From positions 1-57,300 of the IMG/VR virus record IMGVR_UViG_3300030521_000001: a stretch of DNA of 57,300 nucleotides. One strand, given 5' to 3'. This DNA is from a virus. Shown here one piece after another: positions 12,415 to 45,377 of the stretch. Within the stretch, counting starts at the first letter, position 1; every line of letters starts with the position of its first letter. The position numbers and the translations under genes are program-made. The notes beneath the pieces were generated by a model, which was not told the DNA's origin, did not search any database, and saw only the letters and a list, made by a program, of their open reading frames with translations.

Positions 12415-12416
12415 GT

Positions 12417-13239: not shown

Positions 13240-13241
13240 GA

Positions 13242-13466: not shown

Positions 13467-13671
13467 ACTGGCCGTCCATTGTTTTGCTTAGCATCCTGCC
13501 GCACTCGCCGCAGTAGGTGTACGGCCCGTATCCGCCCCCGGCCAGGCCAAACCCGACTTCCGGTTCGAGGTCGGGATGTTCTGGGCACTTGGCAGGACCG
13601 TCGCGCAATTCTTCGCGGATTTCCGACGCGTCAATGTGTGCGAAATACTTGGCGTCTGGGTCCTTGGTCAT
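13459..13671 (-). CDS. Small Zn-ribbon-like hypothetical protein.
   Basis: Internal ATG 13671 is preceded by GGAGGAG. The longer ORF start (13791) would overlap the polymerase gene. CPEHP...CGECG motif. Confidence 0.5.
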   Translation of the reverse strand: MTKDPDAKYFAHIDASEIREELRDGPAKCPEHPDLEPEVGFGLAGGGYGPYTYCGECGRMLSKTMDGQYD

Positions 13672-13735
13672 TTCTGGAACTCCTCCATCCATTCTGCAAT
13701 ACGCCGGTGTTGGGCGCGTTGCTCTTCTAACGTTG

Positions 13736-15667: not shown

Positions 15668-15668
15668 T

Positions 15669-15938
15669 TCACCACCCGTCCCGGTCGCGCGGGTCGCTCT
15701 TCGGCTCGTCGTCATCGTCCATCGCGAAGTCGGTGTCGCCGACGAACTCCTCGTGCAACTTTTGAATCCAGGCCAGTTGCTTCGGCGACACGAACACTCG
15801 TTCGCCATATTCCTTATCCTTGGCGATCATGTCGGTCAGGAAATTGCGCGGCGTTTCCTTCATGCCGCCGACTTCGTCCGCCAGTTCCTCCAACATCTGG
15901 TGGAACCGGGCGTAATCCTGTTCATTAAGTGCGGGCAT
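15669..15938 (-). CDS. Hypothetical acidic protein (89 aa).
   Basis: Internal ATG (MPALNEQDY) chosen; the ORF extends to 16031. Acidic C-terminus DDDDEPKSDPRDRD. Confidence 0.45.
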   Translation of the reverse strand: MPALNEQDYARFHQMLEELADEVGGMKETPRNFLTDMIAKDKEYGERVFVSPKQLAWIQKLHEEFVGDTDFAMDDDDEPKSDPRDRDGW

Positions 15939-29294: not shown

Positions 29295-29432
29295 CTAGTA
29301 GAGATGGTTTAGTTCCAAGCGACGCGGTCTTTGAGGTTCAGGTTCCAGTTCGCGGGGCAGGGGGCTTGCGAAGCGCCGTCCGGCGTGCTCTATTCAGCGT
29401 AGCCTGAACCAGCACTAAGGGTACTTGCGCGT

Positions 29433-29987
29433 GTGAAAAAGCCCAAACCCAAGAAAGCGAAGCCCCCGCCCAATGCCGAGGCAACCGCAAAACTTGCAGC
29501 TTCCAAAGCAGCCACGCAGCCGATATTGTGGCAAAGTGGCATGCGGAAGCGATCTCGTGAGTTGGAAGAATTTTTCCTCGCCGGGTTGCGTAGAGCATGG
29601 TCGGTTTCAAAGTCGGCTCAGGCTATTGGCATTACTCCTACGACAGCTTACGAATGGAAGAACAAGTCCCTTGCGTCACGCCGTGAGGATGGCACTTACG
29701 CCGACGATTTCTGCGTCCGCTGGGTCGGGGCGTACGAGACCGGCGTCGATCGGATCGAGGACGAAGTCATTCGCCGAGCGGTCGAGGGGGTTGAGAAGCC
29801 AGTGTATCAAGGCGGCATTCTCGTCGGCTCGGTCACTGAGTATTCCGACACGTTGGCAGGTCTCGTCATGAGAGGCAAGCGACCAGGTGTTTATAATACC
29901 GAACGCCACGAGCATACCGGCAAGGACGGCGGGGCGATCCAGCACAATTTGCAAATCGAGTTCATCGACGCGAAGGGCAAGAAATGA
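29433..29987 (+). CDS. terS: Terminase small subunit candidate (HTH protein), GTG start.
   Basis: 184 aa, first gene of the late strand. HTH SKSAQAIGITPTTAYEWKNKS, followed by EVIRRAVEGVEKPVYQGG..VTEYSDTLAGLVMRGKRPGVY, typical of small terminases of alphaproteobacterial phages. Confidence 0.5.
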   Translation: MKKPKPKKAKPPPNAEATAKLAASKAATQPILWQSGMRKRSRELEEFFLAGLRRAWSVSKSAQAIGITPTTAYEWKNKSLASRREDGTYADDFCVRWVGAYETGVDRIEDEVIRRAVEGVEKPVYQGGILVGSVTEYSDTLAGLVMRGKRPGVYNTERHEHTGKDGGAIQHNLQIEFIDAKGKK

Positions 29988-30283
29988 TTAAGATCACTAA
30001 AGGCCCACAAGCAGATTACGAAGCCCGGTTTGGTGAAGTTGGAGACGTCGTCGATTTTCGTATCGTGTCGGACTATCACATCCAGACTGACACGATTTTG
30101 ACGCGCTTGGACGTCAAAGTGGACGAGGAACATTGGCATAATGCCGTGTTCACATCCGTACGATTACGCCAGTTGAAAATTCCACAGGTCGGTGTCGATG
30201 GGGCGTGGGGCGCTGGCGCCAATCGGCAAGACCTGATCGAGGCGCTGCGCGGGTTGGTGGACGCGCTGGAGCAAGGCAAATGA
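29984..30283 (+). CDS. Hypothetical protein (99 aa).
   Basis: ATGA overlaps at both ends. Confidence 0.5.
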   Translation: MIKITKGPQADYEARFGEVGDVVDFRIVSDYHIQTDTILTRLDVKVDEEHWHNAVFTSVRLRQLKIPQVGVDGAWGAGANRQDLIEALRGLVDALEQGK

Positions 30284-30777
30284 TTGAACGTCGCAGCATT
30301 CTCGTCGGTTTGGGCGCGCTGTTCGCGGCGCCCGCGATCGTGAAGGCTGCGTCGCTGATGAAAGTGACGCCGACCGAAATCATCAGGGCGCCGAACTACA
30401 ACTATTTGACGGTCGACCAGATCACACGCGAAGCTGTGCGACGGTTCGCAGATTGCAACAAATTCATGCAGGAAATCGACAAACAGTACGCGGAAGACTT
30501 AGCGTTTGCACACGGCGACCAGTGGTGGGCCAGCGGCACTGAAATTGGTCAAGTGCTTCGCATTCGGCTACCGAACGATTACACCGTGAGCGACGGGCCG
30601 GGCTTGTCGATACAGGAACCGAGCGAGCGCTACATATTTGCAATGATGAACCAATCAACCGGTTTGGTTTCGATGTCGGATCAGTTGGCTGCGGCGGCCG
30701 TTGTTGCTGTCGCCGCTCCCGTCGTGGTGCAGAAGGTGCTTGAACAGCCAGTGACGCGGAGGTTCTGGGCCAGATGA
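30280..30777 (+). CDS. Coat-protein N-terminal paralog carrying a Tat-like signal peptide.
   Basis: Internal ATG 30280 (ATGA overlap). N-terminus MIERRSILVGLGALFAAPAIVKA-AS. Then LTVDQITREAV..FMQEIDKQYAEDL....IGQVLRIRLPNDYTVSDGPGLSIQEPSE aligns with residues of the major capsid protein (LTISMITREAI..FLKNLNRQYDNEF....IGSQLRIRLPNDYTVTDGPALSVQDTAE). Confidence 0.65.
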   Translation: MIERRSILVGLGALFAAPAIVKAASLMKVTPTEIIRAPNYNYLTVDQITREAVRRFADCNKFMQEIDKQYAEDLAFAHGDQWWASGTEIGQVLRIRLPNDYTVSDGPGLSIQEPSERYIFAMMNQSTGLVSMSDQLAAAAVVAVAAPVVVQKVLEQPVTRRFWAR

Positions 30778-31337
30778 GAACCGACAACGCGCTCAGCACG
30801 CACCTGGAAGAGAAGAAGCGATCCGAACGCGTTACGATGACGATCGTAAAACCCGCAGGGGTTTGCACTTGCCCTATGTGTTTGCAGCACAAGGAAGCAA
30901 CAGGACACGACCTGATCCAAAATATCAGCATGCGTGAAATTACGGAGTACAAACCTGGGGCAGCCGTCAGCATAGACGACGTCGTATCAGGGCCGGTGTA
31001 TGAAGCGCAGCCTTTGACCCGTGTCAATGCGTCGTACCAGAGTGGCAATGCGCTAGTCGTTGATCCGCTCCATGAAGATCTTCCAGTTGGGATAGTCATC
31101 GAAATTGACAACGTGAAAATGTGGAATCGCACAGCCGATTGCTCAATGACGCGTCTGCGTCAATTTGTTACGACCAGCAAGGCGGGGATTGGGCACACGA
31201 TCCTGTTCCTTTATCCGTCGATTTGGGCGATTAAGGATGACCCGTTGCGTACGGTCGTTGATCTACCGATGAACAAAGCTATCGTAAGACGCGTTACTGC
31301 CGCAGCAATCCCGCTGCATGATGGAGGGGTAAAATGA
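30774..31337 (+). CDS. Coat-protein middle-region paralog (187 aa).
   Basis: YQSGNALVVDPLHEDLPVGIVIEIDNVKMWNRTADCSMTRLRQFVTTSKAGIGHTILFLYPSIW aligns with the capsid segment GQTGPTLVVNAITGTLLVGDIVTVAGTIAVNRVAKSTTGELRQLVILTNAANAATSLNVYPSII. ATGA overlaps at both ends. Confidence 0.6.
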   Translation: MRTDNALSTHLEEKKRSERVTMTIVKPAGVCTCPMCLQHKEATGHDLIQNISMREITEYKPGAAVSIDDVVSGPVYEAQPLTRVNASYQSGNALVVDPLHEDLPVGIVIEIDNVKMWNRTADCSMTRLRQFVTTSKAGIGHTILFLYPSIWAIKDDPLRTVVDLPMNKAIVRRVTAAAIPLHDGGVK

Positions 31338-32881
31338 AGCTGTTTCGTTCTGCGGCAGTGGGGCTTGGCGCTCTGGCTGTTATTTCTGTAGCGGCGTACG
31401 CCGCTGGTTATTTTCCGGGCTTCCCGGTCGTGGGCGGCCTCGCGTATTGCCAGTCCTCGGCCGGCGTCGGTGCGGGCACCGGCTCGTCAACCTTCGCCTC
31501 GACTACGCCCGGCGCGCAGTTTGGACAGGGCGCCGTGGGTCAGGCTGGCACGTTCGCCAACCCGTGTAATCTCGGCGTGAACGTCGGGCCAGCGGCTGTA
31601 ACCGGTTCGGAACTGATCGCGGCAGACACCAACTTGCCGGGTGGGGTGCAGCCCCAGACCGTGCTGGTTCCGACGTCCATCCTTGGCCAGTCGGTCAACC
31701 GCCTGATCGGCGGTGAGTTTACTACCAACCTGGCGCAGCGCCTCTCAACCACCAAGGGCATCGCGTCGCTTGCCACGCTGTCCCCGACCGCAGCCGTCAT
31801 CACGGCTGACCGTTGGTGGGTGATCGCCCCGGCAGCCGGCGTCACCGTCACGATGGACTCGACGGCGGCAACTGCCGTGGTCCCCGGGCTCAACAACACC
31901 AAGGCGCTCCGTCTCGCTCGCACCACGTCCGGTGCGGCGGGCATCATGTGCCTGGGCCAGACGCTCGACGCGGCGGCATCGCAACCGCTGATCGGCAACA
32001 ACGCCGTGTTCTCGTTCTGGGAGTCCAACGGCGCTGGTCAATCGGCCACCAACGGTAACTTCACGGTCAACGTCGATTACACTTCGGCCGCCGACGCTGC
32101 AGCCACCCAGGCCACGCTTGGTTTCGCGGGCGCCAACGGTTCGCTGTTCGCGCTGGGTGACGTCGGTCTGCTGTCGGCCGGCCCTACCAACATGACCCGC
32201 GCCATTGCCGGCGCGTCGGTCGGCACCACCGCTTCGGTGACGGCGGGTGTGGCGACCATCGCGGGCTCGACCACGTGGGCGCGCTACAGCGTTTACGCGC
32301 CGATCCCGTTGACCATTCCCGGCACCACCACGCTGGTTACCTCGGTCAGTGTTTCGGTGTGCTTTACCCCAACCGTGACGACCGCGATTACGACCGACTG
32401 GATCGAACTTGAAGGTCTGCAGCTTGAAGCCAAGCCGTCGACCGCCACGGTTTCGATGCCTTCAGGCGTGATCTCGCCGACCACGTTGGAACGCCGACCG
32501 GCACAGATCGAACAGGCCCTCAGCCAGTACTACTGGTACTACAACTTTGAGAGCCAGACGCTGATCTCGACGGTAGCTTCCTGCGCCAACACGTCAACCA
32601 CCATCATGAACTGCTTCCTGCAGTTTCCGGTGCAACAGCGTCTGGCCCCGGTAGTCAAGTACACGACCGGTTTCCAGGGCTTCACGACGACCGGCTACAC
32701 GGCGGTCGGCGCTTGTACGACCTTGGCGGCGTCAGCGTCCTACGTGACGGTGCCGTCCAGCTTCGGCGTCCTGATCAACTGCACGGCCGGCACGCTTCCC
32801 GCAGCCGGTACGGCGAATCAGCTTACGACGCTCGGCACGGCTTCCGCGACCGGCATCATCGTGGCGAGTTCGGAGCCGTAG
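31334..32881 (+). CDS. Signal-peptide protein with a fibre/receptor-binding-like beta-rich body (515 aa).
   Basis: N-terminus MKLFRSAAVGLGALAVISVAAYA-AG. Ala/Thr/Gly-rich. Motifs NRLIGGEFTTNLAQR, ADRWWVI and IELEGLQLEAKPSTAT...LERRPAQIEQALSQYYWYY recall jelly-roll tail-fibre tip domains of alphaproteobacterial phages. Confidence 0.55.
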   Translation: MKLFRSAAVGLGALAVISVAAYAAGYFPGFPVVGGLAYCQSSAGVGAGTGSSTFASTTPGAQFGQGAVGQAGTFANPCNLGVNVGPAAVTGSELIAADTNLPGGVQPQTVLVPTSILGQSVNRLIGGEFTTNLAQRLSTTKGIASLATLSPTAAVITADRWWVIAPAAGVTVTMDSTAATAVVPGLNNTKALRLARTTSGAAGIMCLGQTLDAAASQPLIGNNAVFSFWESNGAGQSATNGNFTVNVDYTSAADAAATQATLGFAGANGSLFALGDVGLLSAGPTNMTRAIAGASVGTTASVTAGVATIAGSTTWARYSVYAPIPLTIPGTTTLVTSVSVSVCFTPTVTTAITTDWIELEGLQLEAKPSTATVSMPSGVISPTTLERRPAQIEQALSQYYWYYNFESQTLISTVASCANTSTTIMNCFLQFPVQQRLAPVVKYTTGFQGFTTTGYTAVGACTTLAASASYVTVPSSFGVLINCTAGTLPAAGTANQLTTLGTASATGIIVASSEP

Positions 32882-32977
32882 GATAACGGCGCTTTACGAC
32901 CCACCAAATTGGGCCGATTACGCCTAGTCCCCTCCGCACCACAGCGGAGGGGGCGCCGTATTACAAGGAGACGTTCG

Positions 32978-33214
32978 ATGGCCAACCAGCGCGTCGATTT
33001 CACCGAACTCAACAATCCGATGTTGAAGTGGCTGCTGGACGATGGCACCGAGATTTGGTTGAAGGTCAACCTGATGGGTGTCATGCGCACCGACGAGCGC
33101 TTGCCGGACGGCCAGTTCAAGCACGAACTGAGGTTCAATCAGGCAGTGGAGCAGGTCGCACCGGCCGGCGAGATTGACGTTCGCAAACTGGCGGGAGCGC
33201 GCGATGGATCTTGA
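32978..33214 (+). CDS. Hypothetical protein (78 aa).
   Basis: Internal ATG is preceded by AAGGAG at a 7-nt spacing. Confidence 0.5.
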   Translation: MANQRVDFTELNNPMLKWLLDDGTEIWLKVNLMGVMRTDERLPDGQFKHELRFNQAVEQVAPAGEIDVRKLAGARDGS

Positions 33215-33863
33215 CCTGCTCAAGGCCGCCAATTTGGAGCGGTGGGGTCGTTGCGAAATTCTACCCGCGCGCAAATCCGAAGTCCTCAGGACGGTACAGC
33301 GTTTGTGTCTACCCAGTTCCAAGGCGCGTTATCAGGGCGTTACTGATCGTCTGGCCGAGTTCGCGGCACACAGTGATAAGATCGTCGCGGTGCCGTGGTG
33401 GTTTATTGCGATCACCAGTGAGCGCGAGTACGGCGGCCCGCCGCACTGGGACAAGCAGCTTGGGCAGGGCGACGACCTCGACAAGGTGTCGCGTCACATT
33501 CCGCGCGGCATGGGACCTTACCTCGATCACCCCGGCGATACTACGCCGGGCCATGATGCCTGGACGCGTTGTTGCGTCGACGTGCTGATCAACTCTGCGC
33601 CCTACGCCGCGAAATGGAAGGACTGGTCGATTGGGGGCGTGCTGACGTTGTTCATCCTTTACAACGGCGTCGGCTACGAACAGTATCACCACGAACCGTC
33701 GCCCTACGACTGGGGTGCGACCAACATTGAACAATCGGGCAAGTACACGGGCGACGGCCAGTTTAGCGCCAACGTGTGGGACACGCAGATCGGCTGTGCG
33801 GCCATGCTCAAGGCTATGATTGAACTCGACCCGTCGATCGGGCAGAACTTGGGGGTCACATGA
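33204..33863 (+). CDS. Lysozyme-family (COG5526-like) peptidoglycan hydrolase candidate.
   Basis: 219 aa. LLKAANLERW...KARYQGV...VPWWFIAITSEREYG...GQGDDLDKVSRHIPRGMGPY...VDVLINSAPYAAKWKDWSIGG..LFILYNGVGYE....PSPYDW..TN....GKYTGDGQF..NVWDTQIGCAAMLKAMIELDPSI matches my recollection of this rhizobial/phage lysozyme-like family. Confidence 0.5.
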   Translation: MDLDLLKAANLERWGRCEILPARKSEVLRTVQRLCLPSSKARYQGVTDRLAEFAAHSDKIVAVPWWFIAITSEREYGGPPHWDKQLGQGDDLDKVSRHIPRGMGPYLDHPGDTTPGHDAWTRCCVDVLINSAPYAAKWKDWSIGGVLTLFILYNGVGYEQYHHEPSPYDWGATNIEQSGKYTGDGQFSANVWDTQIGCAAMLKAMIELDPSIGQNLGVT

Positions 33864-35311
33864 CGGACCTGATTCTTAGGGCTTGGAAGCTTGTTCTGAT
33901 TTCGGTCATGCTGACCTTGGCGCAACACGCCCATGCGCAAGCACCCGTCAAGGTTCAGACCCCGAGCGTTGTCACCCGGTCCGGCAACACGCAAACCAGC
34001 TATCAGGACGTGGGCGTCGCCAATCCGATGCCAACTTCGGCGGCCGGCCCTTCAGGATTCTTGCAAGGCGTCTCGCCGGCCGGTAACAATTCCCGCGTCA
34101 CGGGTGGCGACCCTCTGCAATTGTTATGGGACGACTTCCGAGGCGGTGGAGGCCCGGTCGGTACCGGCGTGCTGGACACGGTGTTTAATTGGAAGACGCC
34201 GGTTACGGGTGGCACGGGTACGCCGCTGGCCGCCAACAATCAGTTCGGCGCGACCACGCTGGGTTCAGGCACCGGCACCGGGTTTTCGGTGTTGCAAAGC
34301 CAGGAGTCGTTCGCCGGCAAGAACCCCGGCTGGTTATACTTCCGGGGACAAATAAACATCGAATTTCCGGTGTTGTTGAACGCGGTGCGGTTCTGGGGTT
34401 TCGCCACGTTTCCGACGACGCCTACTACGGCCGCGCCTTACACTGACGCCGAGGGCTTCGAGGTTGGGCTGGACGGGCACTTGCGTGCAGTGACGGCGGC
34501 CAGCGCGGACAGCGTAGCAGCCGGAACGCGCCTAGTCATAAACGACCTGTCGTTGCCTTGCCCGGCCACCGTCACGTTGACGGGATCAGTGGCGAGCGGC
34601 ACGAACACGTTGTCGACGGCCGGGTCGTCTTTCGCCAACAACGTGTTCCCATTTCAACTCGTCACGGGCCCTTCCGTTCCGTACGCCACCACTGTTACTG
34701 CGGTGAGCCCGACCGGCGTCACGCTCAGTAACAACGCGACCGGCACCAATTCAGGTCTTTACACCTTCGCCGGGCAATGTGCGCCTAATCTGGTGGGCCA
34801 AGTAGCCCAGCCTCAGGACGCCAGTGTTCACGCGTACACCAAGTTTCCCAAGGGCGACCGCATCTTTTGGGCCATCGACGGCGAAGACAACATCGTAGCC
34901 CAGACTTACAACGGCGCCCCGGGACCGGGCAACAACGCCTTGCCCGTTGGCTATGCGGCAATAGGCAACACGCCGACTTCTTCCGCGACCGTCACCGTCA
35001 ATCAGGCCGTGGTTGCGGACACTGCGCGCAATCCTTATTTCAACGGCCTGGTGCGTGACCGGACCATCACCTCGGCGACCGGCGCGTCGCAAGCGTTCTT
35101 TGCCGCTAATCTGCAGCGTCATTCGCTGAACATCGTGAACACCGGCAACGCCAACTGCGGCATTAACCCGACCGGGGGCACGGCGGCGATCGGGGGCGCT
35201 GGTACTTTAACGTTGTCTGCGCTAGGCGCGTACACCCCAAAGATTCCGCCACGTAACGCCGTCACCGTAATTTGTACTGCTGGACAACCGATCTATGGGG
35301 ATGAAAATTGA
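33860..35311 (+). CDS. Signal-peptide protein (483 aa), beta-rich, unknown function.
   Basis: N-terminus MTDLILRAWKLVLISVMLTLAQHAHA-QA. Gly/Thr/Ala-rich. ATGA overlap with the upstream gene. Confidence 0.55.
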   Translation: MTDLILRAWKLVLISVMLTLAQHAHAQAPVKVQTPSVVTRSGNTQTSYQDVGVANPMPTSAAGPSGFLQGVSPAGNNSRVTGGDPLQLLWDDFRGGGGPVGTGVLDTVFNWKTPVTGGTGTPLAANNQFGATTLGSGTGTGFSVLQSQESFAGKNPGWLYFRGQINIEFPVLLNAVRFWGFATFPTTPTTAAPYTDAEGFEVGLDGHLRAVTAASADSVAAGTRLVINDLSLPCPATVTLTGSVASGTNTLSTAGSSFANNVFPFQLVTGPSVPYATTVTAVSPTGVTLSNNATGTNSGLYTFAGQCAPNLVGQVAQPQDASVHAYTKFPKGDRIFWAIDGEDNIVAQTYNGAPGPGNNALPVGYAAIGNTPTSSATVTVNQAVVADTARNPYFNGLVRDRTITSATGASQAFFAANLQRHSLNIVNTGNANCGINPTGGTAAIGGAGTLTLSALGAYTPKIPPRNAVTVICTAGQPIYGDEN

Positions 35312-35844
35312 AACGCTCTATTAAGGTCCTAAGCCCGGTATTGCTGGCGGCGTTAGCAGTCGTGGCACTGCTAATACTGAAAGCGCACGCAGCCGACGTT
35401 ACTAACCCGACTGTAGCCCCAGCAGGAGCCACTTTTCAATCGTCCATTTCCGGCAACGGGCTGCAACCTGTTGGGACGGCTAGCACAACCTTTGTCATGA
35501 TGGGGTTAGGAACTACTTGTAAAATCACCCCAACTAGCAATGGCAGGGTGCATTTCACCATCGGCGGCAACATGTTGAACGCCACCAATGGCATGACCAC
35601 TAGAGTGGAATTGGCGTTTGGGACTGGTGCGGCGCCGGTTAATGGCGCCGCTGTGACCGGTACCGTACTAGCTGGGCCAAGAGGTTCTATTGGCGCAAGT
35701 TCCGAGTTGCATGGTTTTAGCACTGATGCCGTCGTCACTGGCCTGGTCCCAGGCACTACGTATTGGTTCGATACTCCCATGAACACTGATTCCACAGGTA
35801 CGGCTTCTGTTACTAACGTCATGTGCAACGCCGTCGAGGGTTGA
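35308..35844 (+). CDS. Signal-peptide protein (178 aa), TTG start.
   Basis: TTGA overlap with the upstream stop. N-terminus MKRSIKVLSPVLLAALAVVALLILKAHA-AD. Beta-rich body. Confidence 0.5.
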   Translation: MKRSIKVLSPVLLAALAVVALLILKAHAADVTNPTVAPAGATFQSSISGNGLQPVGTASTTFVMMGLGTTCKITPTSNGRVHFTIGGNMLNATNGMTTRVELAFGTGAAPVNGAAVTGTVLAGPRGSIGASSELHGFSTDAVVTGLVPGTTYWFDTPMNTDSTGTASVTNVMCNAVEG

Positions 35845-37202
35845 TGAACGGCCTGAATACATCCAGCCTTACGCGGCCGAGGATTCAATTTCCGGCCAAG
35901 GCGATGTGTCTGTTTCAGCCGGCACCGTACAAGATTTTTCATGGGGGACGCGGGGGCTCGAAGTCCTGGGACTTTGTGCGTGCGCTACTGTCGATCGGCA
36001 CAACCAAGGAATTGTTTATCCTGTGCTCCCGCGAGGTGCAGAACTCGATTGACGAGTCTGTGTACAAGTTGCTGTGTGACCAGATCATGGCGATGGGGCT
36101 TGAGGGTTTCTACACTCCGTATGACACCGAAATCCGGGGCAACAACGGCACCCGATTCGTGTTCGCCGGGCTCAAGAACCAATTCAGGAAGATAAAATCG
36201 TACGAGGGCGTCGACATTTGCGCGGTGTTCGAAGCTAACAACATCGCCGACCCGGTATGGGAAACGCTTGAACCTACCATTCGTCGCGACCCCCCGTACG
36301 GGCCATTCGGCGAGGGGTCGGAGATCTGGTTGGAGTTCAACCCTGAACTGGCGACCGACGCCACTTACAAGCGGTATGTGCTTGACCCGCCCCCCGGCTC
36401 GATCGTGGTGGAGTTGAACTACTGGGACAATCCGTGGTTTCCCGAGATCCTGCGTCGCCAGATGGAGCGTATGAAGGAGAAGGACTATGACAACTACCTC
36501 ACGGTTTGGTGCGGCAAGCCGCGCAAGACGCTCGCGGGAGCAGTTTATGCCAAGGAACTCCAAGCTGCCCTTACCGACGACCCGCCTCGCATATCGCCAC
36601 ATATTCGTCACGACCCCAAGCGAGGCGTCATCGTCATTTTTGACCTTGGTCGGGCCGATACATGCGCCTTGTGGTTCGTTCAGCAAATCGGAATGGACCA
36701 CGCCGTCATTGATTATTACGGTAACACCGGGTTTGACTTCACGCACTACATCGAAGAAATCCGTGAAAAGAAGTACCGTATCGCTAAGGTGATTCTGCCC
36801 CATGACGCTCGACACAAAGTCATATCAGCCAGGTTCTCTGTACTGCAACAGGCACGAGACGAATGGGGAGACGAGCGAGTCCCAAGGCCCTTACCCCCAA
36901 CACCTGCATCAACCCGTATCAATGCTTTGCGGTCCTTATTTCCCAGGCTCTACTTCGCTGAGGGACCAACCCAGGCCGGAGTTCAGGGTCTCACGCATTA
37001 CCAGTTTGGGGTGAGCGACAAGGGCCAGCGCACGGCCGAACCGTTACATAACTGGGCGTCACACCCGGCGAACTCGCTGGAACACTACTCACTCAGCTTA
37101 CAGCCCGGCATTTACGAGCGCGATGACGAACCCACCGATGAGGACTTTGACAATCCGCATGGGACGACCAGTCATGAACAACCGACAGGATGGATGCGAT
37201 GA
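35844..37202 (+). CDS. terL: Terminase large subunit.
   Basis: 452 aa from ATG 35844 (TGATG junction). Walker A-like FHGGRGGSKSWDF; ILCSREVQNSI; FAGLKN; WLEFNP; nuclease-half motifs VIFDLGRADTCALWF and ILPHDA. Confidence 0.85.
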   Translation: MNGLNTSSLTRPRIQFPAKAMCLFQPAPYKIFHGGRGGSKSWDFVRALLSIGTTKELFILCSREVQNSIDESVYKLLCDQIMAMGLEGFYTPYDTEIRGNNGTRFVFAGLKNQFRKIKSYEGVDICAVFEANNIADPVWETLEPTIRRDPPYGPFGEGSEIWLEFNPELATDATYKRYVLDPPPGSIVVELNYWDNPWFPEILRRQMERMKEKDYDNYLTVWCGKPRKTLAGAVYAKELQAALTDDPPRISPHIRHDPKRGVIVIFDLGRADTCALWFVQQIGMDHAVIDYYGNTGFDFTHYIEEIREKKYRIAKVILPHDARHKVISARFSVLQQARDEWGDERVPRPLPPTPASTRINALRSLFPRLYFAEGPTQAGVQGLTHYQFGVSDKGQRTAEPLHNWASHPANSLEHYSLSLQPGIYERDDEPTDEDFDNPHGTTSHEQPTGWMR

Positions 37203-37507
37203 GCAGACCCAGCAAAAACGGCGGACCGTTTGCAGCTTACCATGCTGCGGTAACCAACCCGATGATCATGAAACTTAATCTTAGGATGGCAGAAGAAGCC
37301 CGTGTGCTACACAAACTGAAACATCTGAGGGTCCAAACCGTTACCACAACTCCTGAGTGGTCGGATTGCTGCAACATATCGTTCGAACCGGGTCATTACG
37401 ACCGTAAAGTGTTCTTGGGATTGCTGGCTTCCAAACTGGTACATGACGGCAAGGAGCCTTTGGAATTGGCCAAATCAAACGAACAATTGTGGGTTAGGAC
37501 AGGTTGA
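37190..37507 (+). CDS. Hypothetical protein between terminase and portal (105 aa).
   Basis: ORF overlapping the terL end. Its stop overlaps the portal ATG. Confidence 0.45.
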   Translation: MDAMSRPSKNGGPFAAYHAAVTNPMIMKLNLRMAEEARVLHKLKHLRVQTVTTTPEWSDCCNISFEPGHYDRKVFLGLLASKLVHDGKEPLELAKSNEQLWVRTG

Positions 37508-39918
37508 TGGCCCTTCGTCGCGCTTCCAGCGCCAGTCGCCAGGACGACCCGCGCGATCGCGTCAAGCCCACTTACACTCGGATTGAGCGTTCCGACATGC
37601 TGCGCCAGATGGGCGGCGGCATGGGGGACAACAGCGACGGCGAAGTAACCGAAGAGGACGTCGAGATCCTGCTGGAGGCCTACGAGCGCTTCGCCTATTG
37701 CACGGAATGGGAGAACATGTTCCGTGACCAGTACATCCACGACGTCAAGTTTGCCAACGCGGACCCAGACAACGGCTGGCAGTGGCCGGACGATCTGCGC
37801 CGTGACCGCATGCTTAACCGGCGCCCCGCGCTGACCATCAACAAGGTCAAGAACCACGTCAACCTGGTGGTCAACGACGGCAAGCAGAACAAGGCGCAGA
37901 TCAAGATTTCGCCCACCGGCAAGGAAAGCTCGTTCCTGGCAGCGAAGGGCATCGAAGGCATCATTCGCAACATCGAGTACCAATCGAATGCCACTACGGT
38001 GTACGACGACTGTCTGGAATCGGCCACCGAGGGCGGCATCGGCTACGGCCGCGTGGTCTCGATCTTCCCCGATCCCCGCGCTTTCAGCCAGGAATTGCGC
38101 ATCAATCCGGTACAAGACCATCTGGGCGTGTATTTAGACCCCGACATCAAGCAGAAAAACGGTTCGGACGCCAAGTTTGGTTTCATCTTCGAGGATTTGA
38201 CGCGCGACGAGTACGAACGGCAAAACAACGAGCCGGCCCCTACCGGTTCGGCGCCGTTCACGATGGGTCTCGGCAGCGACTGGGTGCGGCCCGACCACGT
38301 CCGCGTCTGTGAGTACTACCGCATTAATTTCAAGCCGGACGAACTGATCTATTATCGCCACGGCAGCGAGGAATCGATTTTCCTGCGTTCCGAAGTGCCA
38401 CGCAGCATGCGTAAGCAGTTGCGAATGCATGAATCCCAGGCCAAGCGTGGTATGCTGGGTAACGACACCGAGATCATCACCCGGCCGACCGAGATCAAGT
38501 CGTTGCAGTGGTACAAGATCGGCGCACACCGCATCATCGATCGCGAGGAATATCCCACTCAGTACGTCCCGATATTCAGGTTCGTCGGTCGCGAGCGCGT
38601 CATCGACGGCAAGCTGGAGCGCAAGGGCCTGGTGCGCGGGATGAAAGACGCTCAGCGCATGTACAACTACAATTCCAGCGCGGAGGCGGAAGCTGCGGCT
38701 CTCGCTACCAAGACCAACTGGCTGGTGGCGCTGGAGGCCATTGCCGGCAACAACAACATTTGGGAACGCGCCAATGTCGACAACAAGCCGTACCTGCCGT
38801 GGCGACACAAGGATCGTGATGGCGATCCAATTCCTCCGCCTCAACGTATTGATCCGGCTAAGACTGCCGAGGCTTACCTTGCAGGCATGGAGATCGCCTC
38901 GCGCGAACTGGAGATGGCGTCTGGCCAGGGACCTGCACAGTTTGGCAAACCCACCAAGGAGCGTTCCGGCAAGGCCATCGGCGAGACCCAGCGCCAGGGC
39001 GAAATCCTGACGTTTGACTTTATCGACAACGCGTCGTTGGGTATTCAGTACGTCGGCATGATCCTGCTCGACTGGATACCGCATTGCTACAAGACCAAGC
39101 AGGTGGTCCAAATCCTTGACGAGGACAATACCGAACGGCTCATCCTGATCGACCCCGACGCCCGGTCGCCCTATGAGGAACAGAAACTCAAGGACCAGGT
39201 CCAGGCCGTCCTCAATCCCAAGATCGGTCAGTACAAGGTGCAGGCGCAAGCGGGGCCGGCGTACGCCACTCAGCGCCAGGAAGCCTGGAACGCGTTCGTG
39301 CAGATTGTGACCGGGGCACCTGAACTTATCAACGAGATCGGCGATCTGATGTTTCTGGCCGCTGACTTCCCGATGGCCGACAAGATTGCCGAACGCATGC
39401 GCCGCAAGATCAAGCAGATGGCGCCGTGGCTGCTCGATGAGAACGCCGTCAATCCAGTACAGCAGCAATTGCAACAGCAGCTTCAGGAAGCCGGCCAGCA
39501 GATCGCGGAACTGTTGCAGCAAGTGGCCGAGAAGGACCGCAAGCTCAAGGACCAGACCGAGGACATCAAGATCAAGAAGGTCAGCGCGGCCGACAACATT
39601 CGCAAGACCAACCTGCAGGCTTATGACAGTCACACCAAGCGCATCACGGCGGTGTCCAATGCTGAACTTGATCTCGACCGGGCCGGCGAGCACGACCAGC
39701 TTGTCGAATTGATCAACAAGATCGTCAAGGACACCCTGAAGGAGCCCAAACTCGACGAGCACGAGGATGAGCCGGAAGCCCTGGAGACGGACGACGATCG
39801 CAGCGATAACGATGCGGATTTCCACGAGCCGCGCCTGGCCGACGACGGGCACCACTACATCAAACACGGCGGCCAGCACTACAAGGTAGACACGCAGGCA
39901 ATGTTAGGGGCACAATGA
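37507..39918 (+). CDS. Portal protein (P22-like, with a long C-terminal helical barrel).
   Basis: 803 aa. FANADPDNGWQWPDDLRRDRMLNRRPALTINKVKNHVNLVVNDGKQNKAQIKISP is typical of P22-type portals. Gln/Glu/Lys-rich coiled C-terminus (QQQLQQQLQEAGQQIAELLQQVAEKDRKLK). Confidence 0.8.
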   Translation: MALRRASSASRQDDPRDRVKPTYTRIERSDMLRQMGGGMGDNSDGEVTEEDVEILLEAYERFAYCTEWENMFRDQYIHDVKFANADPDNGWQWPDDLRRDRMLNRRPALTINKVKNHVNLVVNDGKQNKAQIKISPTGKESSFLAAKGIEGIIRNIEYQSNATTVYDDCLESATEGGIGYGRVVSIFPDPRAFSQELRINPVQDHLGVYLDPDIKQKNGSDAKFGFIFEDLTRDEYERQNNEPAPTGSAPFTMGLGSDWVRPDHVRVCEYYRINFKPDELIYYRHGSEESIFLRSEVPRSMRKQLRMHESQAKRGMLGNDTEIITRPTEIKSLQWYKIGAHRIIDREEYPTQYVPIFRFVGRERVIDGKLERKGLVRGMKDAQRMYNYNSSAEAEAAALATKTNWLVALEAIAGNNNIWERANVDNKPYLPWRHKDRDGDPIPPPQRIDPAKTAEAYLAGMEIASRELEMASGQGPAQFGKPTKERSGKAIGETQRQGEILTFDFIDNASLGIQYVGMILLDWIPHCYKTKQVVQILDEDNTERLILIDPDARSPYEEQKLKDQVQAVLNPKIGQYKVQAQAGPAYATQRQEAWNAFVQIVTGAPELINEIGDLMFLAADFPMADKIAERMRRKIKQMAPWLLDENAVNPVQQQLQQQLQEAGQQIAELLQQVAEKDRKLKDQTEDIKIKKVSAADNIRKTNLQAYDSHTKRITAVSNAELDLDRAGEHDQLVELINKIVKDTLKEPKLDEHEDEPEALETDDDRSDNDADFHEPRLADDGHHYIKHGGQHYKVDTQAMLGAQ

Positions 39919-40172
39919 TCATAGCGCGCATCCCTAATGCTACCCGCACGATAGGCAAGTCTCAAGGCTATTTGGGGTTGCCGTTGCGGGATGAAATGCG
40001 CAACTGCACCGTTAATGGTGAACAGACCCCCGTGATGTTGACGGCTTGGGAACCAACCCCGGACGAACTGGAACGGTTGAACAAAGGAGCTTGTGTACAC
40101 TTAGTGATTTTGGGCAATAGTCATCCTCCTGTTATGTTGGAAGTTGGAGATCCAATTGCCGAACCCGCTTGA
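39915..40172 (+). CDS. Conserved small head-module protein (85 aa).
   Basis: ATGA overlap with the portal gene. Motif SQGYLGLPL...MLTAWEPTPDELERLNKGACVHLVILGNSHPPVML recurs after portal genes in many phages. Confidence 0.55.
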   Translation: MIIARIPNATRTIGKSQGYLGLPLRDEMRNCTVNGEQTPVMLTAWEPTPDELERLNKGACVHLVILGNSHPPVMLEVGDPIAEPA

Positions 40173-40173
40173 C

Positions 40174-43100
40174 ATGCTGACGGCGCCAAGCGATGACGAC
40201 AGCGGGACCTTGCCCGTGGTGTCGGCGCCGCGCTATCAGGTGTGGCCGGAACGAATGATACGTGGCGCCGGCAGTGCTTTGAACACGGGGGTCGACGTCG
40301 CTACGTCCGGGGTCAATCGCTTAACTGACGTGTTGATGGGTATGCCGGAAGGGCTGATGCAGTCCGTCGTATCCGGTACTACACTGGCCGGCGACGTCGC
40401 AAGCGGCGCGCAGCCGGTATTTGACCCCGAGACGGGTCACGTCGCGGAGCCCGTGATACAGCGCGCACAGGACATGGCGGGCCTCGCGGGCGGGGGTGCC
40501 TTGACAGAAAAGCCGGGAGTTGCTACGTTAGGATCGGGACCGATACGCCGACCTGACATAGGAGCACTGATGCCTGCCCCCAAGAACGCTTTGAAGCTTG
40601 AACCGATTCAGGGCCTCAACAAGGCGATGCCGACGCTTGAGATGGCCGAAAAGGTGCCCGGTACGCCGGAAGAGTGGGCCAGTCATTTTCAGGAACTGCC
40701 TGAGATCAAGAACGCCCTGATGCTGCCCGAGTTTAAGAACACGCTGGACGCCAACGGCAAGGCGACCGGCAAGGATGTGGCAGACTTCCTGAAGAAGGTG
40801 CAGGCAGTACCGGAAAAGGGCGCGGCGCCGATTGACACCAGCATGGACCGGCGCTCGTTCGTGCGCGGGCTGGTTAGCACGGTAGCGAATGCGCCCAGGA
40901 TCTTGAAGTTCGTGGGTAAGGCATTGGAAGCGCAGCCCGCGCAAGTCGCGGAGGCGGTGGCAGGGCCGAAGGTCAAGCTGGTCAATCCGTCAGCGGCAAT
41001 AAAGTACGGGATGTCGCCGGAACATGAAAAGGAATTGCTGCGGTACGCGGCCGACATGATGAATGAAAATGGCGACTACACGCCGAAAGAAGCGGTTACC
41101 GAAGCGCGCCGGATGTGGAAGGAAGAGCCAGGCTTTATGATGGAGCAGCACGCTCCGGAATTGTGGGAGGATCAAGTCAGGAACCCGGACGAGATAGTTT
41201 CCGAACGTGTCCACAAAGAAATGGGCTTGCCGGAAGGCCCAGTCCCTAGTGATAGGTATACGGAGTTCTCTAATCGACATAAGCAACTGCGCACGGAGAT
41301 GGGCGACGATTTGGAGATGGACCTCGGCCATCGTTACGACCCCGGCACCCAGTTCGAAATTCCGAAGCCAGTAAAGACCACTGAGATGCCTGCCGTTGGC
41401 GAGACTCGTTTTGCTAGTCAAGCCAGGGACGTCTTCCGCACCGCTGACGGCAAGACCTTCCCCACGCGCCAGGAGGCCATGGCCCACCACAAGGAACTTG
41501 AGAAGGGCAATTTCAACCCGGTGACGCTTCGTTCCGATACTTCTGAGCCCGGCGCCGCTTTGGCTGCGGCCGAGAATGCGCCCGCCTTCTATTCGGCGCT
41601 TGAGCACGCGACCACCAACGCTGCGCAGGACACCATGTCGCCGCAGCAGTGGCTGGGCTACCTGAAGAACCAGCCGGGCGTCAAGAAGGAAGAACTGGAT
41701 TGGACCGGGTTGGAAGGCTGGCTGGGCGAGCAGAAGGGGAAAGTAAAGAAAGCCGACGTGCAGCAGTACCTGGACGCGCACAAGACCGAACTGAAGGACG
41801 TGACGAAAGGTGGGCTTGGTTATGACGACCGGGCTCTGCGCGCAGCCGTGGACGATCATGTGGAGGAGATGCTACGAGACCACGAAGAAGAGGAGGGACG
41901 ACCTGCTACCGTGGCTGAACGCGCTCAAATTCGGCAGAGCGCGGAAGACACAGTTAGGGAAAACCCTGAAGAATTTGGGATTAAGGAAGACGAGGCGTCT
42001 ACCAAGTATTCTTCGTATCAGCTTCCGGGCGGCGAGAACTACCGCGAGCACCTGATAACGATGCCGAAAAAGAATAGCAATCCGAAGCCCACGGGGGACG
42101 AAGCTGGTGAGATTGCTCATTACGCGGAGCAGCGGCGAAGGGGACGTGAATTAACACCGGAACAGCAGACTAGGGACGATGAACTGGTCGCTAAGAGCCG
42201 GGCATTCTATGGCGCGGAAGACGCTGCGCCGTCTTACCGTTCTTCCCATTGGGACGAGCCCAACGTGCTGGCCCACGTGCGCACCAACGACCGCGTCTTT
42301 CCCGGCGAGACCCTGCCGTCAACCGGCAAGCCCCGCACTTTGGACGACGTGATTACTGCGCGTGACGCGCGAGCCCAGGAACTTGGTAACGACACCAAGC
42401 GGATGTACGCCGACGACAAGTACATGGGGCTCACCAAAGACTGGGAAACGCTGGCCAGGAAGAACATGGCCGGCGACAAGACCGCCACGTTGCCGGCGAC
42501 CGACGAGCCCCGGCCGGTGAAGTCGTTGCACCTGGAGGAAATCCAGAGCGACTGGCACCAGCAAGGAAGGAAACAGGGATATAAAGTCGAACCTACTAAA
42601 TCAGCCAATGAACTACGCCAAGCAAACAAATCGGCGGAGGACTACACCGAAGGGCTGAGACAGAAATATGGGGACGACGATTGGACTACCGAAATGACCC
42701 CGGAGGAAAGACAAACTCATCGTAGTCTGTGGGACGTAGTGCGGGACTTCCCCAATCGGGAGGCAATGGCTAGAACTTCTGGTGTCCCCGACGCTCCTTT
42801 CAAGACCACCTGGCCCGAACTCGCTTTGAAGCGCATGATCCGCCACGCCGCCGAGAACGGCTACGACCGGATCTCGTGGACGCCGGGCGAAGCGCAGGCG
42901 GCGAGGTACGACCTGAGCAAACATTATGACGCTTTACAAGTGTACAAGCACAAGGAAGGTGATTTTAGCGTCTGGGGCAAAACCAGTCCTAACGCTGCGG
43001 CTCAGCAGCTATCGATGCATGTGGCCCCGGAAAAATTGCCTGACGTCGTTGGCAAGGATTTGGCCGAAAAAATATCTCAACAGACGGAAGATAAGAAAGA

Positions 43101-43392
43101 ATATAGTGGTGTTGATCTCAAGGTCGGCGGCGAGGGCATGCGCGAGTTCTACGACAAGATGCTGCCCAAGATGGTCGAGAAGATAGGGAAGAGCCACGGG
43201 GTGAAAGTGAAGACAACCAAAATTAAGACGGAAGACGTGCAGCATCCTGACGACCAAGCTCCCGTCCATTATTTTGATCTGCCGCAGTCGCTTAAGGACC
43301 AGGCCCTACGCAAGGGATTCCCTTTATATGTAGGGTCTATTCCATTTCCGTTGACACCTGTGAATTACAACCCGTTTGAAAAGAAAAAATGA
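40174..43392 (+). CDS. Large head-associated (polyvalent-type or injected) protein, 1072 aa.
   Basis: ATG 40174 lies one base after the upstream stop; the ORF extends to 40144. No enzymatic motif recognised by eye. Conserved-looking blocks SLHLEEIQSDWHQQGRKQGY and WPELALKRMIRHAAENGYDRISWTPGEAQAARYDL. Position between portal and scaffold. Confidence 0.6.
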   Translation: MLTAPSDDDSGTLPVVSAPRYQVWPERMIRGAGSALNTGVDVATSGVNRLTDVLMGMPEGLMQSVVSGTTLAGDVASGAQPVFDPETGHVAEPVIQRAQDMAGLAGGGALTEKPGVATLGSGPIRRPDIGALMPAPKNALKLEPIQGLNKAMPTLEMAEKVPGTPEEWASHFQELPEIKNALMLPEFKNTLDANGKATGKDVADFLKKVQAVPEKGAAPIDTSMDRRSFVRGLVSTVANAPRILKFVGKALEAQPAQVAEAVAGPKVKLVNPSAAIKYGMSPEHEKELLRYAADMMNENGDYTPKEAVTEARRMWKEEPGFMMEQHAPELWEDQVRNPDEIVSERVHKEMGLPEGPVPSDRYTEFSNRHKQLRTEMGDDLEMDLGHRYDPGTQFEIPKPVKTTEMPAVGETRFASQARDVFRTADGKTFPTRQEAMAHHKELEKGNFNPVTLRSDTSEPGAALAAAENAPAFYSALEHATTNAAQDTMSPQQWLGYLKNQPGVKKEELDWTGLEGWLGEQKGKVKKADVQQYLDAHKTELKDVTKGGLGYDDRALRAAVDDHVEEMLRDHEEEEGRPATVAERAQIRQSAEDTVRENPEEFGIKEDEASTKYSSYQLPGGENYREHLITMPKKNSNPKPTGDEAGEIAHYAEQRRRGRELTPEQQTRDDELVAKSRAFYGAEDAAPSYRSSHWDEPNVLAHVRTNDRVFPGETLPSTGKPRTLDDVITARDARAQELGNDTKRMYADDKYMGLTKDWETLARKNMAGDKTATLPATDEPRPVKSLHLEEIQSDWHQQGRKQGYKVEPTKSANELRQANKSAEDYTEGLRQKYGDDDWTTEMTPEERQTHRSLWDVVRDFPNREAMARTSGVPDAPFKTTWPELALKRMIRHAAENGYDRISWTPGEAQAARYDLSKHYDALQVYKHKEGDFSVWGKTSPNAAAQQLSMHVAPEKLPDVVGKDLAEKISQQTEDKKEYSGVDLKVGGEGMREFYDKMLPKMVEKIGKSHGVKVKTTKIKTEDVQHPDDQAPVHYFDLPQSLKDQALRKGFPLYVGSIPFPLTPVNYNPFEKKK

Positions 43393-43913
43393 AACTCACC
43401 AGGGCTTTTCTTAGGTCTATCCTGCGGTACGAACCCGAGACTGGGCATTGGTACCGTGTGGTCAAGCGGTCTAACCAGCCTGCTGGTGCCAGGGCCGGGG
43501 CTAAAGGGCCTAAGGGGTATAACGTCGTTAAAGTCAATGGAGTTAATTATCGATCAGGCCGTCTGGCTTGGTTCTATATGACGGGCAAATGGCCCAAGCA
43601 CCAAGTGGACCACGAGAACCGAATTAATAACGACGATCGATGGGGTAATTTGCGGGATTTGACTAATCTACAGAACGCCAGGAACCGTTCGTATAAAATT
43701 GGAGCGTCTGGACACCGTGGGGTTCGTATTCACAAAAAGCGCTTCACTGCTGGCATTTATGACAAAGACGGCACGACAATTTATTTAGGTGTTTTTGATA
43801 AGAAAGAGCAAGCTGCAGAAGCCTGGCATAGGGCCTATCAACAGCTTTTCGGTCCTCCTGATTATTCCGCGATATCCGACTATGTGCAAGGAGCCATGTC
43901 ATGCGCAGCCTGA
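43389..43913 (+). CDS. HNH homing endonuclease with an AP2-like DNA-binding domain.
   Basis: 174 aa. GYNVVKVNGVNYRSGRLAWFYMTGKWPKHQVDHENRINNDDRWGNLRDLTNLQN (HNH_3 pattern), then HRGVRIHKKRFTAGIYDKDGTTIYLGVFDKKEQAAEAW (AP2 pattern). Confidence 0.75.
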   Translation: MKLTRAFLRSILRYEPETGHWYRVVKRSNQPAGARAGAKGPKGYNVVKVNGVNYRSGRLAWFYMTGKWPKHQVDHENRINNDDRWGNLRDLTNLQNARNRSYKIGASGHRGVRIHKKRFTAGIYDKDGTTIYLGVFDKKEQAAEAWHRAYQQLFGPPDYSAISDYVQGAMSCAA

Positions 43914-45124: not shown

Positions 45125-45377
45125 ACTTCACAACAAGATCGTGCGCGGCAAGGGCGCCAAGGCCCAGAAGCCGATTCCGGTCAAGATCGTGTATGACAAG
45201 GAAACTGCATCCCACTTGTCCAAGCCTGGCGGCATGGACAAGTGGGAGGTGCAGGATGCCCTCCGCACCTTGCAGCGGGCGGAAGAGATTCGCGGTAACA
45301 AGGCCCTGATGAAAGCGGCTACGACCGAAGCCAAGGCCCAAATCAAAGCACTGTCGTCAGTGGGAGCTAAGAAATGA
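45102..45377 (+). CDS. Hypothetical head-module protein (91 aa).
   Basis: ORF with ATGA overlap to the scaffold gene. Confidence 0.5.
   Translation: MEFPLAAKLHNKIVRGKGAKAQKPIPVKIVYDKETASHLSKPGGMDKWEVQDALRTLQRAEEIRGNKALMKAATTEAKAQIKALSSVGAKK

Follow-up and report, generated by a model that had tools for sequence, protein, structure and literature searches.

Copies of head-protein segments, one with a putative export signal, in the late operon of an uncultured podophage: members of a large family of leader-bearing phage proteins

The internal proteins of T4 carry a conserved capsid-targeting leader on hypervariable cargo, and P1 Sim, T4 Imm and Sp, HK97 gp15, and P22 SieA are periplasmic or inner-membrane proteins that bring about superinfection exclusion. 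Hydrogenase small subunits are substrates of the twin-arginine translocation (Tat) pathway that are anchored by a C-terminal tail and take part in hitchhiking export, and the P22-type coat proteins (PF11651) contain an I-domain represented by the structures 2M5S (P22) and 6MNT/8SKG (CUS-3). Here we compare these systems with three adjoining genes, ORF99, ORF1, and ORF2, of IMG/VR virus record IMGVR_UViG_3300030521_000001, the whole analyzed stretch of which (positions 1 to 57,300, 57,300 nucleotides) is called the window and is essentially the complete ~57 kb genome of an uncultured podophage with P22-type head genes. An earlier, sequence-only reading had described ORF1 and ORF2 as the two halves of a split and truncated second capsid gene, the first of them fused to a Tat signal. 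Our best explanation as a whole, which we favor at a little under even confidence, is that ORF1, ORF2, and ORF99 are intact late genes under selection that consist of modules copied long ago from head proteins, rather than the wreck of a second capsid gene, and that the genes are the local representatives of a very large superfamily, so far undescribed, in which a conserved Tat-type leader precedes variable cargo that often mimics head surfaces.

ORF1 (30280-30777, + strand, 165 aa, ATG start) resembles the bona fide major capsid protein of the window, a P22 coat family member encoded at 46884-48092 (+; PF11651 E=8e-22, 78 bits; phrog_283 E=6e-49), which is the source family of the copied modules. 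Residues 43-123 of ORF1 align with coat residues 6-78 (numbered from the start codon at 46884), with 34 identities in 81 positions (42%, E=6e-21). The homology proposed in the sequence-only reading, which gave coordinates and peptides correctly for both ORFs, is thus real, but its extent had been put too high, at the first 110 capsid residues, whereas only about 73 coat residues are matched. Reading along the + strand, ORF1 comprises a Tat-type leader (MIERRSILVGLGALFAAPAIVKA, residues 1-23, 30280-30348), which has a twin arginine, a 16-aa h-region with proline, V-K-A, and a basic c-region residue; a box after the predicted cleavage site (ASLMKV, 30349-30366; family consensus xSLMPVK, with the Met invariant); a copy of the coat N-arm helix (LTVDQITREAVRRFADCNKFMQEIDKQY, residues 43-70, 30406-30489; N-arm hidden Markov model (HMM) E=7e-9); a portal-like motif (AEDLAFAHGDQWW, residues 71-83, 30490-30528), which is an 8-residue insertion relative to the coat; a segment copied from the first strand and the tip of the coat E-loop (IGQVLRIRLPNDYTVSDGPGLSIQE..., residues 85-123, 30532-30648; E-loop HMM E=6e-15); and a hydrophobic tail with PVTRRFW and then the stop codon (residues 134-165, 30679-30777), a putative C-terminal membrane anchor. 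When compared across portals and family members, AEDLAFAHGDQWW resembles the portal N-terminal motif D(V/I)KFAxxDxDNGxQWP, which family member P0011 carries as QYREDYEFMAGNAENDWQWPD; ORF1 residues 47-80 match residues 54-87 of the portal encoded in the window (38% over 34 aa, E=2e-4), and the motif probably derives from the family to which the portal N-terminal segment (residues 54-96, nt 37663-37791) belongs. ORF1 is a mosaic of coat N-arm, portal N-terminal motif, and coat E-loop strand. The possibility that its hydrophobic tail (residues 124-165) is a copy of the coat spine helix was rejected, the match being non-significant (43% over 21 aa, E=2). As a separate observation, the coat N-arm (ITREAIPLFVNSNAFLKNLNRQY, 46899-46982) and the portal N-terminal helix (ILLEAYERFAYCTEWENMFRDQY, 37663-37764) have a loose motif in common, I..EA...F....QY, with ORF1 intermediate between the two; the likeness may reflect a common scaffold-binding element or be coincidental.

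AlphaFold2 (AF2) modeling of ORF1 from its family alignment gives a non-globular protein (mean predicted local distance difference test score, pLDDT, 62.7) of three helices and coil, the helices spanning residues 5-26 (leader), 45-77 (N-arm, pLDDT 82-89), and 114-155 (tail, low confidence). No HK97 domain is predicted, and the E-loop strand RIRLPNDY modeled alone is coil. A search of 5.8 billion proteins returned 47 matches to ORF1, nearly all of them 135-205 aa long and covering 98-100% of it, and their alignment falls into a conserved leader (MIERRSxxxGLVALVAAPAIVKAxSLM), a variable core made from coat-like pieces, and a conserved C-terminus (VPQIPDxLALAAAAVAxAPxxLxKPVTRRFWxK). Most of the about 45 full-length homologues stop within a few residues of this C-terminus, with three or four having a short shared extension, and because the C-terminus is conserved as an end we regard the ORF1 stop codon at 30775-30777 as native and not the product of a frameshift. 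In several relatives coat C-terminal strands (VSMRY..DY...RxDVLYG..RPEW) precede the N-arm piece, so that the order of the pieces is permuted. An ORF1 homologue lies after the small terminase gene (TerS) in the same place in four related contigs (L001-L004), with an ORF99-like gene in between in L001; the next gene is either a 68-aa gene or a homologue of ORF515, the gene that follows ORF2 in the window, and ORF2 is absent, a further point against two halves of one gene. A C-terminal extension, LPQHSAAxEEG, also recurs in otherwise different members (L004 2817-2876; P0002-P0004, P0049, P0052, and P0063) that span the ORF1 family and the I-domain family, and its codons (GAGGAGGG) resemble the ribosome-binding site (RBS) of the next gene.

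ORF2 (30774-31337, + strand, 187 aa), which overlaps ORF1 by ATGA, had been likened to the middle of the capsid protein, and this likeness is sound: residues 84-175 align with coat residues 228-322, the I-domain, at 32 of 95 positions (34%, BLASTP E=2e-9). Residues 80-175 (31011-31298, +), paralogous to coat 228-322, are modeled by AF2 as an I-domain-like six-stranded β-barrel (pLDDT 93-98) and the preceding residues 1-79 (30774-31010, +) are probably disordered (pLDDT about 50-55); within this N-terminal part, residues 49-73 (QNISMREITEYKPGAAVSIDDVVSG) weakly resemble coat residues 361-392 (E=0.44), and the same piece recurs in P0059 and P0062. The top Foldseek matches of the ORF2 model are the CUS-3 capsid (8skg), the CUS-3 I-domain (6mnt, TM 0.60), the P22 coat (5uu5), and the P22 I-domain (2m5s), and residues 238-321 of the coat itself align to the CUS-3 I-domain structure 6mnt (also 8skg). 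A word-indexed search with ORF2 found only ORF2 itself; relatives surfaced in an exhaustive HMMER search of 1.84 billion representatives, which gave 38 matches, about 28 of them proteins of 120-260 aa that align at ORF2 residues ~80-175 with 35-50% identity. ORF2 is therefore closer to these small proteins than to its own coat (34%), which argues against a single split gene. Most of the small relatives start with a Tat-type leader, either of the AAPAIVRA type or a divergent RR leader, one having a Sec-like signal instead, and the leaderless ones bear extra coat pieces, among them KIGTQLRIRLPKDY and the ISLRQITEYRP also present in the N-terminal part of ORF2. In Pfam searches with 30 ORF2-type relatives, nine match P22_CoatProtein (PF11651, the I-domain part only) and three match TAT_signal. 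In ORF2, the I-domain is a separate protein and is not inserted in a coat chain. In view of the native end of ORF1, its mosaic composition and lack of a predicted HK97 domain, and the stand-alone barrel of ORF2, the reading of the pair as parts of a single capsid gene, split and truncated, is not supported.

The capsid C-terminal region, said in the sequence-only reading to be missing, is not wholly so, given that the upstream, leaderless ORF99 (29984-30283, +) carries at residues 21-44 (nt 30044-30115) a copy of coat C-terminal strands 360-383 (DVVDFRIVSDYHIQTDTILTRLDV; tblastn 54% over 24 aa; E=1.1e-3 with an HMM of the coat C-terminal segment in a set of 4,522 small ORFs). L001 has an ORF99 homologue in the corresponding place, as does L023. 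Relative to P22-type coats, the core of ORF1 thus corresponds to the N-arm and first E-loop strand, ORF2 80-175 to the I-domain, with the same predicted six-stranded barrel, and ORF99 to the C-terminal strands. In contrast to those coats, none of the three proteins has an A-domain, a significant spine-helix match, or an HK97 fold, and ORF1 adds a signal peptide, the portal-like motif, and the hydrophobic tail; none of them is a capsid protein. ORF1 and ORF2 have no Pfam match at E<=0.01, PF11651 included. ORF99 is coupled translationally to TerS upstream and to ORF1 downstream, and throughout TerS/ORF99/ORF1/ORF2/ORF515 every neighboring pair overlaps by ATGA, so that the genes form one tightly coupled late string; the RR codons (CGG AGG) of PVTRRFW at the end of ORF1 double as the Shine-Dalgarno sequence of ORF2.

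Codon comparisons agree with the earlier proposal that the peptides are conserved while synonymous positions have diverged. Nineteen of the 34 residues identical between ORF1 and the coat use different codons, and the proportion of synonymous differences is saturated (pS 0.79) relative to that of non-synonymous ones (pN 0.33); the corresponding substitution rates for ORF2 are dS 1.68 and dN 0.70. Moreover, the locus is present in a second assembly (Logan SRR8863205) with 0 mismatches in 6,498 bp, although the two assemblies may share reads. Taken with the protein matches, these data sustain the view of an old duplication under selection as opposed to a recent repeat or artifact. Recent gene conversion from the cognate coat is ruled out for the P22 group because the fragments are not closest to that coat, ORF1 being 42% identical to its own coat and 50% identical to that of locus L005; the fragments are therefore independently evolving genes held in coat-like sequence space. 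Among close pairs of leader-bearing genes, cargo dN/dS ranges from 0.15 to 0.82 (<=0.35 in seven of the ten pairs), and the values below 1 indicate that the cargo is under purifying selection.

The leader of ORF1 has E-R-R-S-I-L-V, an h-region of 16 aa with a mean Kyte-Doolittle hydropathy of 2.23, and V-K-A, in agreement with the Tat consensus S/T-R-R-x-F-L-K, and the consensus of the leader family is SRRSFLTGL...AAPAIVRA. Like the Tat signals described by TIGR01409 and PF10518, the leader has a hydrophobic residue and L after RR, then a short, moderately hydrophobic h-region with Pro, a c-region with a basic residue, and a site of AxA type. Scanning IMG/VR for the leader peptide gave 69 viral loci, in nearly all of which proteins of 75-230 aa begin with xxRRxFLxGLxxLxAAPAIVRAxSLMPVK and continue with unrelated sequence. 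The first two positions of the leader codons do not vary and the third varies freely, also in the RR, G, and S-L-M-P-V codons outside the search pattern; the free third positions show that the leader is selected as protein and rule out a DNA or RNA element beneath it. A profile search recovered at least 2,630 proteins at E<=1 among the 8,000 candidates scored, the top 120 being 72-166 aa long and all unnamed. Sixteen of these 120 match TAT_signal (PF10518; E<=0.1, best 8e-4), and their cargo matches in Pfam are the coat family GP7 (3), Head-tail_con, the T7-type portal (2), and P22 coat (1), with otherwise single weak matches; PHROGs v4 recognizes three of 60 leader proteins, two as 'major head protein' and one as 'distal tail protein'. 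The Tat leader claimed for ORF1 in the sequence-only reading is in keeping with these features and with the TAT_signal matches in the family, ORF1 itself lying below the reporting threshold. In the divergent leaders on I-domain relatives the sequence has been lost but RR, h-region, and AxA are kept, one leader being Sec-like, and it therefore seems that export, and not a particular sequence, is conserved. The same leader occurs in phages of four unrelated coat lineages, which suggests a host partner. We thus predict that the leader is a Tat signal. Described Tat signals differ in that the leader family is far more conserved, to ~7 residues past the cleavage site (SLMPVK), in that many members including ORF1 have sub-threshold HMM scores, and in that the family lacks a cofactor-binding passenger, export here being predicted from sequence. 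No universal partner gene was found near the leader genes. A leader-like motif (MDRRSFVRGLVSTVANAPRILK) is also present at residues 234-251 (nt 40843-40896, +) of a 1,082-aa protein encoded downstream of the portal (40144-43392); the idea that the leader is a copy of this motif was set aside, the leader-HMM match being marginal (E about 0.01-0.02, 0.009 at best) and not seen in the large proteins of other loci.

Clear matches to the local coat gene were obtained when the variable part of each leader protein was compared by tblastn with its own locus. For the P22 coat family these are found in the window, in L005/L006, where the leader gene is directly upstream of the coat, and in L058 (an I-domain piece); for the Phage_capsid_3 family in L054, with two leader genes (58-73% identity), and in L025; and for the GP7 family in L030. 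Other cargos match a fourth coat lineage that lacks a Pfam model and is annotated as major capsid protein in deposited phages, and in L008 three leader genes carry, respectively, N-arm and E-loop, C-terminal strands and spine helix, and C-terminal strands. P22-type portals are matched as well, for example by P0045, which is 50% identical to residues 365-410 of the L016 portal over 46 aa (E=1e-9), and no cargo matches terminase. Cargo of the P0086 type could not be derived from the L018-type coat, for which the matches are patchy and non-significant (E=0.4-0.65). HMMs for segments of the P22-type coat, searched against the set of 4,522 small ORFs and proteins, gave 44 matches with the N-arm, 49 with the E-loop, 10 with the spine helix, 33 with the I-domain, and 15 with the C-terminal strands; the N-arm, E-loop, and I-domain counts are inflated, the sequences having been ascertained through ORF1 and ORF2. 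Apart from truncated coat genes, nothing matched the A-domain or residues 326-360. The mimicry is modular and concerns peripheral elements of the head. In addition, L038 244-525 and L046 10004-10279 have identical leader DNA (pS=0) and diverged cargo (pS 0.45), which implies recombination at the leader-cargo junction and a leader that behaves as a cassette. A leaderless ORF of 141 aa directly after the portal in L080 (10274-10699) has a coat spine-helix-like segment (SIDDFAERVLMPAMYALVGAL), so head-fragment genes occur without a leader and elsewhere too.

Hosts of the leader phages are probably Alphaproteobacteria. One member of the family in NCBI comes from Bradyrhizobium sp., and the exact DNA pattern of the leader has eight matches in 185,579 species genomes, all of them metagenome-assembled genomes, in bins assigned to Alphaproteobacteria, Methylocapsa, and Rhizobiales and also to Opitutae, Saccharibacteria, and Pseudomonadales.

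ORF1 contains two hydrophobic segments with Arg pairs flanking them at both protein termini, the second being the 15-16-aa stretch LAAAAVVAVAAPVVV that precedes ...PVTRRFWAR. From the positive-inside rule, ORF1 may be anchored by its C-terminal tail with its cargo in the periplasm, in a layout like that of the C-tail-anchored and hitchhiking Tat substrates, which likewise have a C-terminal hydrophobic segment followed by basic residues and leaderless partners encoded next door. In the mechanism we propose, ORF1 would be targeted to the host Tat translocase and exported, possibly taking along ORF2 and ORF99, which lack leaders, in a pre-folded complex joined by coat-like strand pairing, such a complex being conjecture; the C-terminal tail would then hold ORF1 in the inner membrane, and the pseudo head surface so displayed would, by mimicry, bind a partner that normally binds coat or portal. 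We consider superinfection exclusion the most likely functional class; like the known exclusion proteins, these would then be small phage-encoded envelope proteins with a signal or anchor that act on incoming phage. As the target we prefer head-associated proteins delivered by superinfecting related phages, which would make the genes an exclusion or decoy device in phage-phage conflict, but we hold this loosely and at well below even odds. More generally, the Tat-type leader may be a portable cassette or recombination handle for capturing and exporting short, selectable mimics of head interfaces (coat N-arm, E-loop, spine helix, I-domain, and C-terminal strands, with portal motifs), by which thousands of uncultured phages would maintain a diversifying envelope decoy library for phage-phage and phage-host conflict; this extension is more tentative than our explanation of the locus itself.

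Several points weigh against this proposal. The strongest is that the most conserved cargo residues are those conserved in coat proteins, so that contacts with coat or scaffold are the simplest interpretation, and both are cytoplasmic, which favors action before or instead of export. We know of no ligand in the periplasm that binds the surfaces of coat or portal. These genes lie in a late operon, whereas functions in exclusion tend to be early or lysogenic ones, and the known exclusion proteins do not mimic head proteins; PADLOC-DB has no match for ORF99, ORF1, ORF2, or five downstream proteins, and by that search there is no sequence similarity to exclusion proteins. Neither TIGR01409 nor PF10518 reports the ORF1 leader, the TIGR01409 scores of two relatives (12.7-13.2 bits) fall short of the cutoff of 16.7, and ORF1 has I instead of F after RRS. 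The hydrophobic stretch of its tail, at ~15-16 residues, is short for a membrane helix. The mimicry is not universal: in the loci fetched, roughly one leader protein in five has a detectable head-protein match, and of the loci with a recognized coat gene in range just 7 of 12 do. Finally, tblastn searches of INPHARED with ORF1, the leader consensus, and two family members found no member in isolated phages, only full-length coats or nothing, although the low-complexity filter may hide leaders; isolates therefore offer no experimental handle.

The preference for coat-type residues is the starting point for a different and, in our estimation, unlikely explanation, in which the proteins modulate assembly in the cytoplasm. 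The mimics would bind unassembled coat, portal, or scaffold, and the leader would tether complexes or procapsids at TatBC or remove surplus subunits, altering where, when, or how faithfully heads assemble, whether those of the phage itself or of a co-infecting competitor. Such a role would account for the retention of ITREA, NSNxF, and KIGxxLRIRLPNDYxVxDGP in the cargo, for the copying of peripheral contact-forming elements and never of the A-domain core, for the combination of coat N-arm and portal N-terminal motifs in one protein, and for the location of the genes in head and packaging modules, where they are co-expressed with head genes. The positive-inside rule, however, puts the ORF1 cargo in the periplasm, a dominant-negative binder of the phage's own coat would be costly, and the higher identity of ORF1 to a foreign coat (50%) than to its own (42%) provides no obvious self/non-self specificity. 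Moreover, the divergent leaders keep the features of a signal peptide and not a tethering sequence.

Bacterial immune sensors, including CapRel, Lit, PifA, and Avs4, often recognize coat and portal proteins, and the fragments might therefore be decoys that bind such sensors without activating them, the leader sequestering the sensor at the membrane or dragging it from the cytoplasm. We judge this improbable. The significant cargo sources are coat and portal, both known sensor targets, plus the one PHROG 'distal tail protein', with no terminase among them, and rapid modular diversification, paralogues (three in L008, two in L054), and cassette-like recombination at the leader junction are traits of an arms race. 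A cytoplasmic decoy, however, needs no export signal, we know of no anti-defense protein that acts in this way, neither PADLOC nor the literature holds anything similar, and fragments resembling the trigger could equally activate the sensor.

Slightly less probable again is that these are packaged internal proteins, with a leader that serves as a capsid-targeting or membrane-insertion sequence and mimicry that docks them in the procapsid, from which they would be ejected into the next host. The layout is that of the T4 internal proteins, with a short conserved N-terminal leader, small hypervariable cargo, several paralogues per genome, and a location in the head module, and the marginal leader-like motif (E=0.009) in the 1,082-aa protein downstream of the portal counts in favor. 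In contrast to T4, the leader here has the hallmarks of a Tat signal and, in 16 of 120 members, matches Pfam TAT_signal, and the cargo mimics head proteins and is not an enzyme inhibitor. The leader is also common to four unrelated head systems, whereas a docking signal should co-vary with the head, and we know of no prohead protease in P22-like phages that could process it. That ORF1 and ORF2 are decaying debris with no function of their own, whether what is left of a second capsid gene copy after frameshifts and rearrangement or a product of misassembly, is highly improbable, and a pseudogene reading effectively excluded, since the lack of ORF2 relatives in the word-indexed search, the GC3 of ORF2 (0.57 against 0.61-0.84 in its neighbors), and the predicted disorder of its first 79 residues stand against 47 full-length ORF1 homologues with conserved termini, about 28 homologues of the ORF2 domain, pN below pS and cargo dN/dS below 1, a confident barrel prediction, ATGA coupling with ribosome-binding sites present, and identity to a second assembly that may share reads.

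The coupled string begins with TerS (29433-29987, +; phrog_4044 E=3.5e-22) and, downstream of ORF2, runs into ORF515 (31334-32881, +), which has a Sec-like signal and fiber-like composition and belongs to a conserved family found near leader genes in 12 related loci. ORF515, ORF483 (33860-35311), and ORF178 (35308-35844) constitute a block of proteins with Sec-like signal peptides in the interval between the terminase genes (31334-35844, +), and the relative L080 encodes at 2279-5941 a Peptidase_S74 tail-fiber-like protein with a signal-like N-terminus. The large terminase (TerL, 35823-37202), the P22-type portal (37504-39918, +; PF16510 E=5e-133), the scaffold (45374-46303), and the coat follow, with adaptor, head-closure, and ejection proteins encoded after the coat gene; the proteins encoded at 53670-54473 and 54480-56051, and the 1,082-aa protein at 40144-43392, are ejection-like. 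An HNH endonuclease gene (46316-46951, +; phrog_3106 E=2e-25) lies between scaffold and coat and overlaps the coat start, and an ORF at 43389-43913 (+) resembles an HNH/AP2-type homing endonuclease by eye only; the proximity of homing elements to the coat gene could favor the copying of coat segments to ectopic sites. The window encodes replication genes of its own (PolA, Prim-Pol/DUF5906, UvrD, and SNF2), no integrase was found among the window proteins scanned, and the phage is lytic-looking and P22-like. On the - strand, 10356-15808 is a likely 2-aminoadenine (Z-genome) cluster, in which a PurA-like gene (11311-12414) with the phage PurZ structures 6fm1 and 7odx as its best PDB matches (E about 1e-35) is adjoined by an HD/YfbR-like nucleotidase (10356-10958) and a family A DNA polymerase (13736-15808).

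Positions 29400-35900 have no DNA match in 50,697 deposited phage genomes. PHROGs v4 has no match for ORF1 or ORF2, and NCBIfam and PDB-chain sequence searches returned nothing for ORF1, ORF2, or the neighboring genes. We found no description in the literature of export-signal-tagged fragments of a phage's own head proteins, and none of the family in family models, deposited phage genomes, or the papers found. If our explanation is true, many phages deliberately produce and tag for export copies of the surfaces through which their own capsid and portal make contacts. We know of no textbook stage of the tailed-phage life cycle at which surfaces of head proteins are placed in the envelope of the cell. 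A true function at that site would thus point to an interaction not yet recognized, for which exclusion of relatives, an envelope-level decoy, membrane-tethered head assembly, and removal of a host sensor are candidates. The existence of free-standing I-domain barrels bears on how P22-type coats gained that insertion, and the family is a source of minimal natural peptides, presumably ligands of coat or portal interfaces. With at least 2,630 clusters, the leader family, which is modular, selected, and invisible to Pfam, PHROGs, and PADLOC, is a substantial block of phage dark matter and one that lends itself well to experiment.

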